A stretch of 58,920 bases of DNA, counting the filler. It is 8 parts of 8 records of this genome, joined end to end, with 100 filler letters (N's around TTAATTAATTAA, not from the genome) between each part and the next. Parts side by side here need not be neighbours in the genome. Positions count along the whole stretch, not along the records: positions 52,880 to 58,920 come from SRR31147125_35301; 7 more parts are not named here. The stretch is one strand, 5' to 3'. Within the stretch, counting starts at the first letter, position 1; every line of letters begins with the position of its first letter. Below, one piece after another: positions 54,955 through 58,920 of this stretch. The notes below the pieces were generated by a model, which ran no database searches, was not told the DNA's origin, and was given only the letters and a program-made list of their open reading frames with translations. The position numbers and the translations under genes were made by a program.

Positions 54955-55176
54955 GCTTTATAATGGTTGTTATTCTATAAAAGATTAATATCATTTTTAT
55001 ACTTGATCTGTGTGGAAATTTATTTTGATAAAATCAGTATTTATAGTAAAATATTTATAAATCACTATATTTATAAGGTGATGTATATTATAATGAAATG
55101 CCTCATATACATCAAGAATGGCTGAATAATTGTCTATACTGTTTTTTTGCTTCAGCTATTGGTGAAAGGAAGCTTC

Positions 55177-57120
55177 ATGAAAAAGTTAGCTGTCTCTCTT
55201 ATTATACTTATATCAATTGCTTTTTCTTTTTTTAAAGTAAGTGCACATAGCTTTAGCGAAGTTTACTTTGAAGACCATGGATCAATTATGTTGATTATAG
55301 ACCCTGTAAATGGGGAAATTACGGATGCAAACAATGCTGCTGTAGACTTTTATGGTTATTCAAAGGAACAATTGGAAAATATGAATATCAATCAAATTAA
55401 TATGCTAACTGATGAAGAAGTTAAAAAAGAGATGGAGTTGGCTGTAAGCGAGAAAAGAAACCACTTTTTGTTTGAACACAGAATTAAAGACGGTACAATA
55501 AAGCATGTCGAAGTTTATTCTACTTTTGTGACTACGGAACAAGGGCTAATGCTTTTTTCGATAATTCATGATATATCTGATAAGGTTATTGCACAAAAAT
55601 CGTTCCAAAGGAATCTAATAATTTTTCATACTTTTATGATCATATTGATAGCATTATTTATTGTATTTATTATATATACATATCGCCTAAAAAGACAAGC
55701 TCTATTGAGTAAAGAAAAATTCGAGGCTTTATTTGATAATATGACAGAAGGCGTTGCTCTGCATAAGATCATTTGTAGCAGGGATGGGAAACCGATAGAT
55801 TATAGTTTTGTTGAAATTAATAAGTCTTATGAGAAGATAACAGGGATCAAGGAAAGCGATGTAATAAATAAAACTGCCAAAGAAGTACTTATAAATATTG
55901 ATGCAGATTTGTTGGGGGAATTTGGAAAAGTTGCATTAACTGGTAAAGGCATGACTTATGAAAAGCGTTTGGACAACGCTGGGAAGCACTATTCTATTAA
56001 TGTATATAGCCCGCAGAAAGAATACTTTGTAACAGTTTATTCTGATATTTCTGATCAAGTAAGAGAAAGAGAAAAGCAAGATGAAATAGTGTCTTTAAGT
56101 TATCGCGATCAACTTACTAATTTGAACAACAGAAGATTTTTTGACGAAGAGTTTAGTAGAATAGATAGTAGAAAAAATTTACCAATAAGCGTAGCAATGA
56201 TTGATGTAAATGGATTGAAATTAACGAATGATGCTTTTGGACACCAAAAAGGTGATGAACTATTAAAGGCTGTAGCAAATTGTATTGAACTAAATAGTCG
56301 TGATGATGACGTTGTTGCGCGAATAGGCGGAGATGAATTTGTTATGCTCCTTCCAAAGACAAGTGCAGAAGATTCAAAGAAATTGGTTGAAGGAATTTAT
56401 AAGTCAATTTCGAATGTAACATTAAATGAAGTGATTATTTCAGTTTCTGTAGGCTGCGAAACAAAAGAAAGCAAATCGGAAGATATCTATGAGATTCTAA
56501 AAAAAGCCGAGGAGGATATGTATCGTAAAAAGCTTTCTGGAAGCAAAAATATGCGCAGTGAAACGATTAAAGTAATATTAAAAACACTGAATCAATCAAG
56601 TACAATGGAGAAAGAGCACTCGGAGAAAGTAAGCTTATTTTGTAAACAAATTGGTAGTATGATGGGTCTTGATGAAGAATCGCTAAACAAACTCGCAGTA
56701 GCAGGTCTTATGCATGATATTGGTAAAATAGCTATTGATAAATCCTTGTTGGATAAAGAGGGTAAATTGACGGAATATGAGTTTGAAGATGTCAAACGGC
56801 ATTCTGAGGTTGGTTATCATATACTTAAATCGGTGGATGAATATTCTGAATTTGCAGAATACGCTCTATCTCATCACGAAAGGTGGGATGGAAAGGGGTA
56901 TCCTATGGAGTTTAAGAAAGAGGAGATACCTTTGTTTGCAAGAATTATCACTATTGCAGATTCTTTTGAAGCAATGGTTAGCGACAGACCTTACAGAAAA
57001 AATTTATCGTACAAAGAAGCGATTAAAGAAATAGAAAGATGCTCTGGATATCAGTTTGACCCAGAGATTGTTCGAATATGTAAAGAACGAGGTTGGATAG
57101 GGTTTGAGGATGAATTCTAA
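55177..57120 (+). CDS. Membrane-bound PAS-PAS-GGDEF-HD-GYP c-di-GMP enzyme
   Basis: Signal/TM helix, PAS, TM, PAS, I-site RDDD plus GGDEF, then HDIGK and HHERWDGKGYP. Confidence 0.93.
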   Translation: MKKLAVSLIILISIAFSFFKVSAHSFSEVYFEDHGSIMLIIDPVNGEITDANNAAVDFYGYSKEQLENMNINQINMLTDEEVKKEMELAVSEKRNHFLFEHRIKDGTIKHVEVYSTFVTTEQGLMLFSIIHDISDKVIAQKSFQRNLIIFHTFMIILIALFIVFIIYTYRLKRQALLSKEKFEALFDNMTEGVALHKIICSRDGKPIDYSFVEINKSYEKITGIKESDVINKTAKEVLINIDADLLGEFGKVALTGKGMTYEKRLDNAGKHYSINVYSPQKEYFVTVYSDISDQVREREKQDEIVSLSYRDQLTNLNNRRFFDEEFSRIDSRKNLPISVAMIDVNGLKLTNDAFGHQKGDELLKAVANCIELNSRDDDVVARIGGDEFVMLLPKTSAEDSKKLVEGIYKSISNVTLNEVIISVSVGCETKESKSEDIYEILKKAEEDMYRKKLSGSKNMRSETIKVILKTLNQSSTMEKEHSEKVSLFCKQIGSMMGLDEESLNKLAVAGLMHDIGKIAIDKSLLDKEGKLTEYEFEDVKRHSEVGYHILKSVDEYSEFAEYALSHHERWDGKGYPMEFKKEEIPLFARIITIADSFEAMVSDRPYRKNLSYKEAIKEIERCSGYQFDPEIVRICKERGWIGFEDEF

Positions 57121-57205: not shown

Positions 57206-57234
57206 TTGCAATAATGTAGAAGTTGTGATAATAT
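57206..57234 (+). promoter_or_regulatory. Candidate SigA promoter for the DUF2294 gene
   Basis: TTGCAA-N17-TAATAT with an extended -10 TG. Confidence 0.55.
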
Positions 57235-57307
57235 TATGTCTACTTATGGCAGAGATCAAGATGGTAAGCAGCTTGCGCTAAGCCATAATTTTTATTGGAG
57301 AACTTAA

Positions 57308-57657
57308 ATGACTAAAGGACAGTATGAAGCCGAAATTAGTAAAGCTATTACTAAGTTTGAATGCGAATACATGGGCAGAGGTCCTATAAGAATAAATACA
57401 AAGATTTTTGATGATGTAGTTTTCGTGAGGCTTTGGGGATTTTAACACCAGCAGAAAAACGCGTTGCGCAAACTAACGAAGGTACAGAGCTTATTAAAAA
57501 TGTTAGAATAAGACTTTTTGAAGAAGCTGATATTGAATTTAGAAAAGTTATTAACGATATTATCAGCGATGAAATCCTAAGTATTCATTCTGATGTCAGT
57601 ACAAAAACTGGCGAGAAGATTATTATAATAACTTTTAAAGATGAAATAAAAATTTAA
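57308..57657 (+). CDS. DUF2294 / MpsC family protein (single-base frameshift at the G-run 57435-57438)
   Basis: MTKGQYEAEISKAITKFECEYMGRGP...VFVRL, then GILTPAEK...LSIHSDVSTKTGEKIIIITF in the next frame. Confidence 0.88.
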
Positions 57658-57706
57658 GAAAGATATTAAACTGGTAGATAAGTAAAAACAAATTGTAGTT
57701 GCAAAT

Positions 57707-57747
57707 AAACCAGTACTATCATGTTATAGGATAGTACTGGTTTTTTT
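57707..57747 (+). terminator. Strong intrinsic terminator in the leader of the DUF4914 gene
   Basis: Perfect 14-bp stem AAACCAGTACTATC / GATAGTACTGGTTT followed by a T-run, ending 25 nt before ATG 57773. Confidence 0.88.
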
Positions 57748-57772
57748 ATAAATTTAAAGGAGTAATAATATT

Positions 57773-58920
57773 ATGAAAGTGAAAACAAGTATCAATAATC
57801 AAATTAGCCTAAAAGTTAATAAAGAGCTAAAAGAGATTTTTGATTCAGCACCAAGCATAGTTGTTCCAAAAGACAGAGCTCATCTTTTGGATCTTGCTAC
57901 AGATGGCGGGAAGCCGTTTTTAGAAGTAAACTATGATGTTGAAGGAGTAGGACTTGTAAAAGAAGCTACAGTTGCAAAATGTAAAAACGGAATTTCTGTA
58001 AACTATAATGAAGTTTACATGAGAAGACGTGACCCAAACTGTATGGTTATTGGAGACAAAGAGAATACTGACAAAGTGCAATATTCTAAAAAATATGACC
58101 GTGATTTTGAAAAGACTCGTGGAGAGACATTTGAGTGGTTGAAAAATCAAGACTTAATTGTTATGCCATTTACTGCTGGTGATAAAGTGTATGGTTATCC
58201 AGCTTTGTTGGTAGCACCAAAAAATGCAGGATTCTTTGCGGGAGGGCTTGCTGATCTTCAAGGGTTTATAAAAAGAGACGAGACTCCGCAGAACTATAAT
58301 CCAAAAGCCATTATATATTTAGCACCTACATTTCGCCATACGCACTACGAAGGTAAACAGGTTGTTGCGCATAACAGGCTAAAAGATGTACACGAAGTTT
58401 TTTCATACAACTTATATCCTGGCCCTAGTGCTAAAAAAGGCATTTATGGCGTTTTGCTTAATATCGGAGAGTACGAAAACTGGACAACAGTTCATGCTTC
58501 TTGCGTTGAATTAACGACTCCATATGATAATAAAATGGTTCTTATGCATGAAGGCGCAAGCGGTGGTGGTAAATCTGAAATGATTGAAGAAGTTCACCGT
58601 GAGGAAAATGGTAGCATTATCTTTGCAAAAAACACTATAAATGATAACGAAGTTACTATTGAACTTTCTGATACTTGCGAATTAAGACCCATTACTGATG
58701 ATATGGCAATGTGCCACCCAGAGCTGCAAAACGGGAAAAAGTTGGTTGTTAAAGATGCTGAAGACGGTTGGTTTTTAAGATTCAACCATATTACAGAGTA
58801 TGGAACATCACCACAACACGAAAAACTAACAATACACCCAAAAGAGCCACTTATCTTTTTAAATATGGATGCAGTACCTGGTTCTACAATTCTTATTTGG
58901 GAACATATAATGGATGAACC
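57773..58920 (+). CDS. DUF4914 family protein, PEP carboxykinase-like (3' truncated; absent from the ORF track)
   Basis: Open frame from ATG 57773 (SD AAGGAG): YMRRRDPNCM, YNLYPGPSAKKGIYG, TVHAS, HEGASGGGKSEM, ITDDMA and DAEDGWF. Confidence 0.85.
   Translation, partial: MKVKTSINNQISLKVNKELKEIFDSAPSIVVPKDRAHLLDLATDGGKPFLEVNYDVEGVGLVKEATVAKCKNGISVNYNEVYMRRRDPNCMVIGDKENTDKVQYSKKYDRDFEKTRGETFEWLKNQDLIVMPFTAGDKVYGYPALLVAPKNAGFFAGGLADLQGFIKRDETPQNYNPKAIIYLAPTFRHTHYEGKQVVAHNRLKDVHEVFSYNLYPGPSAKKGIYGVLLNIGEYENWTTVHASCVELTTPYDNKMVLMHEGASGGGKSEMIEEVHREENGSIIFAKNTINDNEVTIELSDTCELRPITDDMAMCHPELQNGKKLVVKDAEDGWFLRFNHITEYGTSPQHEKLTIHPKEPLIFLNMDAVPGSTILIWEHIMDE

Follow-up and report, generated by a model that had tools for sequence, protein, structure and literature searches.

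How is a gene expressed whose start codon lies directly behind an intrinsic terminator? This question is raised by the mpsC-DUF4914 locus of the window, as we call the whole 58,920-nt stretch of DNA that was analyzed. From 5′ to 3′, the locus consists of a PAS-GGDEF-HD gene, a 187-nt gap, mpsC, a 115-nt gap and the DUF4914 gene, as read from the list of open reading frames (ORFs) and from Pfam. The mpsC product, MpsC, is the DUF2294 protein (PF10057). A preliminary description had interpreted the second gap as an attenuator at which MpsC, acting as an RNA-binding sensor perhaps of CO2 or bicarbonate, antiterminates into a carboxylating enzyme, and had named a small-molecule riboswitch as the alternative. 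Comparison of the locus with its relatives supports this interpretation and leaves the riboswitch as a live alternative. We regard the intergenic stretch as a transcription attenuator that belongs to a new RNA family, and we consider it probable, if well short of certain, that MpsC-dependent antitermination operates the switch.

Two overlapping structures were found between mpsC and DUF4914. The attenuator element, a candidate antiterminator, spans 57669-57715 (+) and begins 12 nt past the end of the mpsC ORF. It was recognized by its fold and by two covariance models (CMs), R1 (41.9 bits) and R2 (33.7 bits, E = 5e-8), scores that are partly by construction, as the window copy made up 1 of the 14 training rows of R1 and 1 of the 65 of R2. 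The outer helix, P1, is formed by ACUGGU at 57670-57675 with ACCAGU at 57709-57714, and is followed inward by the loop strands UAG and AAA (consensus AAG/AAG), by P1b (AU/AU, 57678-79 with 57705-06), by P2a (GUAA/UUGC), by an AA/AG loop and by P2b (ACA/UGU). The intrinsic terminator spans 57707-57747 (+). Its 14-bp stem pairs 57707-57720 with 57730-57743, its loop measures 9 nt, and a run of seven U occupies 57741-57747. The 3′ strand of the attenuator element supplies the first 8 nt of the terminator, which ends 25 nt before the DUF4914 ATG at 57773. Folding of 57655-57775 returned the terminator at -26.1 kcal/mol (z = -3.86; 1 of 200 shuffles was equally good), and folding of 57660-57720 alone returned the alternative hairpin at -10.3 kcal/mol (z = -2.51). 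The sole promoter-like site that a promoter scan detected past the terminator, at 57745-57774, overlaps the DUF4914 start codon. When the whole window was scanned with R2 with filters off, 57669-57715 was the only significant match. The terminator, its complementarity to ACTGGT and the lack of space for a full promoter were therefore all found as the preliminary description had claimed.

The element is shared by many relatives of the locus. A scan with a fragment of DUF4914, taking one genome per species, recruited 80 loci, the best at 70% identity, and mpsC stood immediately upstream of DUF4914 in 21 of them. In 13 of those 21 loci, from Bacillota and Spirochaetota, an element with the layout YGGAAGAC, hairpin and AGUAAGCC lies just past the mpsC stop codon and leads into a terminator. 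Model R1 was built from these 13 loci and the window, and model R2 from 65 copies, the window included. Outside its training set, R1 found a second tandem copy in L017 and, in L003, a third copy that has a terminator to itself. An independent recruitment by alignment of MpsC alone gave at least 587 metagenomic relatives, of which the best 80 were taken. Among these, R1 made 56 matches at E ≤ 1 in 53 loci, on the mpsC strand in every case and 5-120 nt past the stop codon in almost all. After four loci with no more than 42 nt past mpsC had been set aside, 52 of the 76 usable loci held an R1 match after mpsC; the match in L128 was excluded from this count as false, since it lies inside mpsC itself. 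Inspection by eye of the unmatched loci revealed a variant, GGAAGAUAGCC...AUAAGCC, in L131, L137 and L147 and ...AUAGGCC forms in L145, L156, L159, L168, L170 and L171.

The structure is supported by covariation. In 65 CM-aligned copies (60 distinct), 89.9% of the paired cells held standard pairs, compared with 75.3% in shuffles, of which 0 of 500 reached the observed value, and 18-40% when partners were slid; the covariation score of the 65 aligned copies was 0.369 versus 0.154. The alignment was fitted to the model, which favors structure, and the slid-partner controls argue that this fitting is not the whole cause of the pairing signal. All six pairs of the two inner helices vary on both sides. 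A C-G pair (columns 11 and 96) is C-G in 55 copies, U-A in 4 and U-G in 1, next to an invariant A-U pair, and the GG/CC of P1 is essentially invariant, with one G-U in 60. From the outside inward, the family hairpin consists of P1 (NNGG/CCNN), a symmetric AAG/AAG loop, AC/GU, a variable loop, P2a, an AG/AG loop and the P2b hairpin. Conservation and covariation in homologous loci, on which the preliminary description had staked its proposal, were thus both present.

Comparison with Rfam, also proposed in the preliminary description, placed the motif outside Rfam 15 (4227 families): no CM match to the motif was obtained in the window, in seven loci or, even at E ≤ 10, in short stretches of L152 and L005. 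The window gave only chance-level Rfam matches to the terminator hairpin, the best of which reached 24.9 bits where the gathering score is 66.5. Three weak CM matches obtained with the new family were rejected as chance, one in G130/L092 that lies inside a coding frame and those in L086 and L191, which no terminator follows. A match of 14 bits (E = 1.2) at L030:191-230 lies just ahead of a DUF4914 gene at a contig end. Four loci from Bacteroidota, Fibrobacterota and Chitinispirillum metagenome-assembled genomes (L069, L070, L074 and L077) lack an R1 match and carry a different conserved hairpin and terminator after mpsC; a TTGAC(A/T)-N17-TATATT-like promoter also follows mpsC in these loci, and in L069, L070 and L074 a stretch of about 500-600 nt, probably coding, precedes DUF4914.

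The overlap with a terminator is a property of the family. Sequence sufficed for this comparison in 74 distinct copies, and in 71 of these a hairpin followed by a U run begins at the conserved (G/U)CC, with a median stability of -21.9 kcal/mol. The three copies without a standard terminator are the first tandem member in L017, the second tandem member in L093 and the copy in L139, in which the U run is weaker. Tandem copies occur at L017:3512-3695, L093:1382-1553 (-), L184:6267-6464 and L174:2147-2961. In L017 one terminator is common to two aptamer-like hairpins. The second copy in L093 lacks a terminator, and pairing of its GUCC with the ribosome-binding site (RBS) GGGGGGAC is possible. In many loci, the downstream gene begins 25-150 nt past the terminator, where a promoter would not fit.

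These features suggest a mechanism. Transcription from a conserved promoter would pass through mpsC into the rod-shaped hairpin, whose 3′ strand (GUAAGCC...) would double as the base of the terminator's 5′ arm. With no factor present, the far more stable terminator would form and DUF4914 would be off. A factor that keeps the hairpin closed would leave the base of the terminator unpaired, and RNA polymerase would continue into DUF4914. Because stabilization of the hairpin strips the terminator of the pairs beside its U run, the predicted logic is that of an ON switch. We propose that the factor would be MpsC, that its binding would favor read-through and that the signal may be the supply of inorganic carbon (CO2/bicarbonate).

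The assignment of the factor draws on the distribution of the motif, which follows mpsC, and not the regulated gene, in the DUF4914-recruited loci, in the MpsC-recruited loci and in samples of genomes. Among DUF4914 loci with no mpsC detected upstream, 0 of 59 had an R1 match at E < 1, and all matches at this threshold fell within the 21 mpsC-bearing loci. The 59 negatives are the informative part of this comparison, because 13 of the 21 positives had trained R1. In a class sample of 151 genomes around G001, strong matches were found in G001, G085, G107 and, in three copies, G154, and MpsC is encoded in 9 of the 151 genomes, all four motif carriers included. A phylum sample of 151 genomes added six carriers (G323, G337, G382, G416, G422 and G434). 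MpsC is therefore encoded in 10 of 10 genomes with a clear copy. The distance between motif and mpsC was 30 nt to 2.5 kb in the eight genomes compared, and both lie on the same contig in all six genomes from the phylum sample. When 151 genomes from the phylum of G003 were scanned, the center genome alone was recovered.

The motif is not confined to the position directly behind mpsC. In G337, motif and terminator stand upstream of mpsC; in G382 the order is motif, PurE-like gene and mpsC; and in G422 mpsC is divergent. The orders in G337 and G382 would represent autoregulatory variants of the regulator-first layout. Second sites in mpsC-bearing genomes lie ahead of a SulP gene (L184) and of PurK (L105). 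The copy in L089 precedes a P-type ATPase gene 7 kb from mpsC, and that in L087 precedes an ORF160-PurK pair on a contig other than that of mpsC.

Some mpsC loci have arrangements of their own. In L095/L104 (G085:C2:211700-214078), two near-identical mpsC copies are separated by 2 kb. Behind the first come the switch, ORF160 and an adenylate kinase gene (named from its sequence alone), and the second leads straight into DUF4914 with no switch. In L160, a PurE-like gene lies within about 25 nt of mpsC with no switch between them. In L167, the gene after mpsC resembles monomeric isocitrate dehydrogenase at its N terminus, as judged by eye, and a weak R2 match lies upstream of mpsC.

The first downstream gene was tallied for 78 distinct copies, with Pfam applied to representatives. 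DUF4914 was the most frequent (22 of 78), a count inflated by the 21 loci that were recruited via DUF4914, and was followed by GTP-dependent phosphoenolpyruvate carboxykinase (PEPCK_GTP; 15 copies) and by ORF160 (8 copies), a family of about 160 aa with no Pfam match. PurE (one of them a weak fragment), MpsC itself and aminotransferases each accounted for 5 copies, P-type cation ATPases and the Sbt_1 bicarbonate-transporter family for 3 each, and PurK and SulP for 2 each. Single copies preceded biotin carboxylase, a NuoL-like protein (Proton_antipo_M, 878 aa, in L148), an MFS transporter and DUF6671, and in 4 of the 78 the gene was too short or unassigned. Most of the gated families use or move CO2 or bicarbonate. 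The enrichment of downstream genes for carboxylation enzymes and inorganic-carbon transporters favors the earlier suggestion that the switch gates a carboxylating enzyme. ORF160 was located at L088:1663-2142, L087:1617-2087, L177:3034-3531 and L093:770-1276 (-) and in L186, and is followed by PurK in L087 and by DUF4914 in L110.

The nature of DUF4914 itself was examined by profile comparison. DUF4914 takes the slot behind the switch that GTP-dependent phosphoenolpyruvate carboxykinase (PEPCK) holds in other genomes. Alignment of DUF4914 with the collected PEPCK_GTP proteins by hhalign gave a probability of 33% (E = 4.6e-4, 143 columns) and placed GGGKSE, TDDMA and PNPR of DUF4914 opposite the P-loop CGKT, GDDIA and HPNSR, respectively. 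In an Atlas feature search with DUF4914, PEPCK_ATP clusters made up 29 of the 30 matches, with a top score of 0.91. No relative of DUF4914 (L001:3977-5845; window 57773-58920) was found in the PDB by sequence, and an AF2 model from 12 sequences had a predicted local distance difference test (pLDDT) score of 53.7, too poor for a fold search. These data hint, weakly, that DUF4914 may be PEPCK-like.

MpsC was compared with known proteins in the same way. Pfam matched PF10057 only, with no CAT or PRD domain; sequence search of the PDB returned no relative; and an Atlas search gave no usable match. A single-sequence structure model (pLDDT 92) shows two helix-plus-β-hairpin units. Across these searches and Foldseek, MpsC displayed no homology to known RNA-binding antiterminators. 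Twenty-two residues are invariant across 22 MpsC sequences, among them GRGP, R41, K64 and R67. In the excerpts of one study of the S. aureus system, MpsC carries no assigned function, a ΔmpsC mutant grows normally, mpsAB complements without mpsC, and mpsA is down-regulated at 5% CO2 (PMC6689103). The preliminary description had stated that DUF2294 is encoded with MpsAB bicarbonate-uptake systems; this did not hold as a generality, as in the same excerpts mpsC adjoins mpsAB in staphylococci only and is dispensable for MpsAB (PMC6689103).

A hairpin in the 5′ untranslated region (5′UTR) of mpsC, at 57244-57288 (+), had been described as a look-alike of the intergenic element. It folds with the layout described, comprising P1 (UUAUGGC/GCCAUAA), AG/CU, CAAG/CUUG and a small apical hairpin, with an RBS (GGAG) about 10 nt downstream and no terminator after it. 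The layout is kept in three close relatives: the window, L001, L003 and L125 share GG, (A/C)AG, two pairs, P2a, an A/G mismatch, a small hairpin and a closing (C/U)AAGCC, and the L001 and L003 copies scored 15.9 and 16.4 bits with R1 (E of about 0.02, filters off). On its own, the window copy was not significant and was much weaker than the intergenic copy; its fold was no more stable than shuffles (z = -0.66), and R2 gave it 9.0 bits (E = 3, rank 6 in the window, filters off). Among the four sequences, 82% of cells were paired compared with 15-60% when slid, and five pairs vary on both sides; this pairing was no better than that of shuffles (76 of 500; n = 4). These suggestive data are consistent with the 5′UTR hairpin being probably a diverged copy confined to the clade of the window, L001, L003 and L125. 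Such a copy might conceivably let MpsC act on its own mRNA.

Several observations weigh against operation of the switch by MpsC, and they bear on the explanation that survives best beside it, a protein-independent ON riboswitch in which a small ligand or ion, such as bicarbonate, Na+ or a metabolite of the C4 or purine pathways, stabilizes P1 and mpsC simply often comes first in the operon. With a median isoelectric point of 6.4 in 22 proteins, MpsC is not basic, and a Foldseek search with its model gave no match at E < 0.001; the best had an E value of 0.019 and template modeling scores were 0.3-0.4, and no solved RNA-binding protein was among the matches. The outer core of the RNA, GGAAGAC/GUAAGCC, is near-invariant across phyla while MpsC falls to 42-46% identity, and a small-ligand aptamer would look alike. 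P1 is weak outside its GG/CC, its two outer pairs being formed in about 72% of copies and unpaired in 16-17 of 60. Tandem copies, as in L017, L093, L184 and L174, are known from riboswitches too. The association with mpsC is partly by construction, as most loci were recruited via mpsC or its neighbor; mpsC in L096, L104, L160, L163 and L175 has no detectable motif after it; and G055, a 0.9-Mb genome in which no MpsC was found, holds a weak match. The general architecture is classic for a riboswitch, in that the conserved core lies in internal loops, the helices covary and the terminator shares the 3′ strand, and the regulon holds ion pumps and Na+-dependent transporter families. Against a riboswitch stand the absence of any match to Rfam 15, its ion riboswitch families included, and the tracking of mpsC by the motif in the genome samples and DUF4914 loci described above. 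The prevailing position, behind a small, constitutively transcribed gene and not at the transcript's 5′ end, is likewise unusual among known riboswitches and characteristic of antitermination systems in which the regulator comes first. Weighing these points, we regard a protein-independent riboswitch as rather unlikely, and as the alternative to be taken most seriously.

MpsC could also act in the opposite sense from that proposed, opening or blocking the hairpin and thereby promoting termination in the manner of PyrR, or the element could set mRNA stability or yield a 3′UTR-derived small RNA ending at the terminator. The direction of control is not readable from sequence, and in most loci the element and terminator make up the 3′ end of the mpsC transcript. 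In addition, no terminator follows the 5′UTR copies of the window, L001, L003 and L125, and those at least must act in another way. However, the terminator is already far stabler than the hairpin, both in the window and, judged by the median stability, in the family, and a termination-promoting factor would have little to do because the terminator is already favored. The close spacing of terminator and downstream gene in many loci, with no promoter space, also argues against these explanations, which together we judge improbable. That an ordinary terminator simply follows mpsC and that the two hairpins are alike by accident in AT-rich DNA is scarcely credible: the 5′UTR hairpin alone is not significant, but the E value of the intergenic element, the covariation in 65 copies and its recurrence in 52 of the 76 mpsC loci that were recruited independently stand against chance.

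Antitermination by MpsC is thus the explanation that we favor, and MpsC may well be a new RNA-binding regulator. The wider proposal, that MpsC/DUF2294 founds a new class of RNA-binding antiterminators that senses inorganic-carbon status, directly or via a carboxylation metabolite, and governs a cross-phylum regulon, is tentative, and we would sooner expect some part of it to fail than all of it to hold.

The remaining features of the locus concern mpsC and its neighbors. A putative mpsC promoter was read at 57206-57234 (+), with a -35 box TTGCAA at 57206-57211, a 17-nt spacer and a TG-extended -10 box TAATAT at 57229-57234. The pattern TTGCAA-N17-TAnnAT recurs at the equivalent place in L001, L003 and L125; in the window, the site falls below the 9-of-12 threshold of the promoter scan. 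The mpsC gene occupies 57308-57657 (+) and is split in the window into frames at 57308-57445 and 57433-57657, a split that the preliminary description overlooked. The two halves match PF10057 over profile positions 1-43 and 43-110 of 111, with 47.1 and 65.8 bits, and the frame changes at a T run, 57440-57443. In relatives, mpsC is a single intact ORF of 118-130 aa. One public run, X1, carries the window stretch (0.88 of sampled words) and may be the window's own source; in its contig (one contig, depth 5.6) there are five T compared with four in the window, the extra T falling after 57439, and the ORF is intact and reads ...VRLWGFLTPAEK..., matching relatives. The frameshift in the window is probably an assembly error.

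Downstream, the DUF4914 gene (PF16260, E = 4.9e-179) occupies 57756-58920 (+), with the RBS AAAGGAG at 57756-57762, and continues past the end of the window. Upstream of mpsC, the gene at 55147-57120 encodes a 657-aa protein with PAS, PAS, GGDEF and HD (HD_5) domains by Pfam, a likely cyclic-di-GMP turnover enzyme; no tie to the attenuator was seen. The GC content of the window is a mosaic. It is about 42-55% in two stretches, 1-38 kb and 46-52 kb, apart from a single 2-kb bin of 38%, and 30-39% in two others, 38-46 kb and 52-58 kb, the last of which contains the mpsC-DUF4914 locus. This mosaic may reflect islands or a chimeric assembly.

No description of this RNA motif was found in the literature searched; subscription journals and supplements were outside its scope, so an earlier description is possible. 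The same search yielded nothing on DUF4914 and nothing relevant on DUF2294, and the passage on bicarbonate in PMC7266159 concerns ykkC, not this motif. The proposed mechanism is of a known type; neither the RNA nor the protein nor the physiological theme is. The locus and its approximately 80 relatives join an uncatalogued structured RNA to a little-studied family of small proteins and to a regulon of carboxylation and inorganic carbon, and they provide leads on the function of DUF4914, which may be a PEPCK-like enzyme, and of the ORF160 family. The sensing of CO2 and bicarbonate by heterotrophic bacteria is largely an open subject. If MpsC does sense inorganic carbon and act as an antiterminator, the switch would give nonphotosynthetic bacteria their first known RNA-level control circuit for the supply of CO2/bicarbonate, one in which MpsC would switch on Sbt_1, SulP and NuoL-like transporters together with PEPCK, PurE, PurK, biotin carboxylase and the PEPCK-like DUF4914. 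The orphan mpsC genes of staphylococci and Bacillus would then be explained.

Among known systems, the arrangement resembles the hut operon of Bacillus subtilis, in which a small regulator gene comes first and a terminator with an alternative structure precedes the enzyme genes. There, HutP and a metabolite signal allow read-through, and the RNA target consists of UAG repeats. Unlike HutP, MpsC matches PF10057 only and has no PDB relative or significant structural match, and its proposed target is, in place of UAG repeats, a rod-shaped hairpin whose loops are AAG/AAG and AG/AG. The BglG, SacY, LicT and GlcT proteins and their ribonucleic antiterminator (RAT) hairpins offer a second parallel, with a short imperfect hairpin whose 3′ part is common with the terminator 5′ arm, a regulator that is often beside its target and several sites per regulon. 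The difference is that Pfam detects no CAT or PRD domain in MpsC, that the RNA consensus is unrelated and that the genes concern carboxylation and inorganic-carbon transport instead of sugar uptake. With PyrR and the three pyr attenuators, the locus shares a regulator that comes first and look-alike hairpins in the 5′ leader and between cistrons. PyrR favors termination via an anti-antiterminator; in contrast, the conserved element itself competes with the terminator here, and there is no homology.

The rod-hairpin ON riboswitches for Na+ (DUF1646 motif), Li+ (nhaA-I) and guanidine (guanidine-I) are similar in their conserved internal loops, covarying stems and terminator overlap, and they gate transporters and metabolic enzymes. 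The motif described here differs in having no Rfam 15 CM match and in being tied to one protein gene, mpsC. Closest in protein and theme is the MpsABC system of S. aureus, which, in the excerpted account, shares PF10057, a link to inorganic carbon, CO2-responsive mpsA and a terminator between mpsC and mpsAB (PMC6689103). In that account, mpsC follows mpsAB and its loss has no phenotype (PMC6689103), whereas in the family described here mpsC precedes the switch, and the NuoL-like gene, found in L148, is one of many targets.

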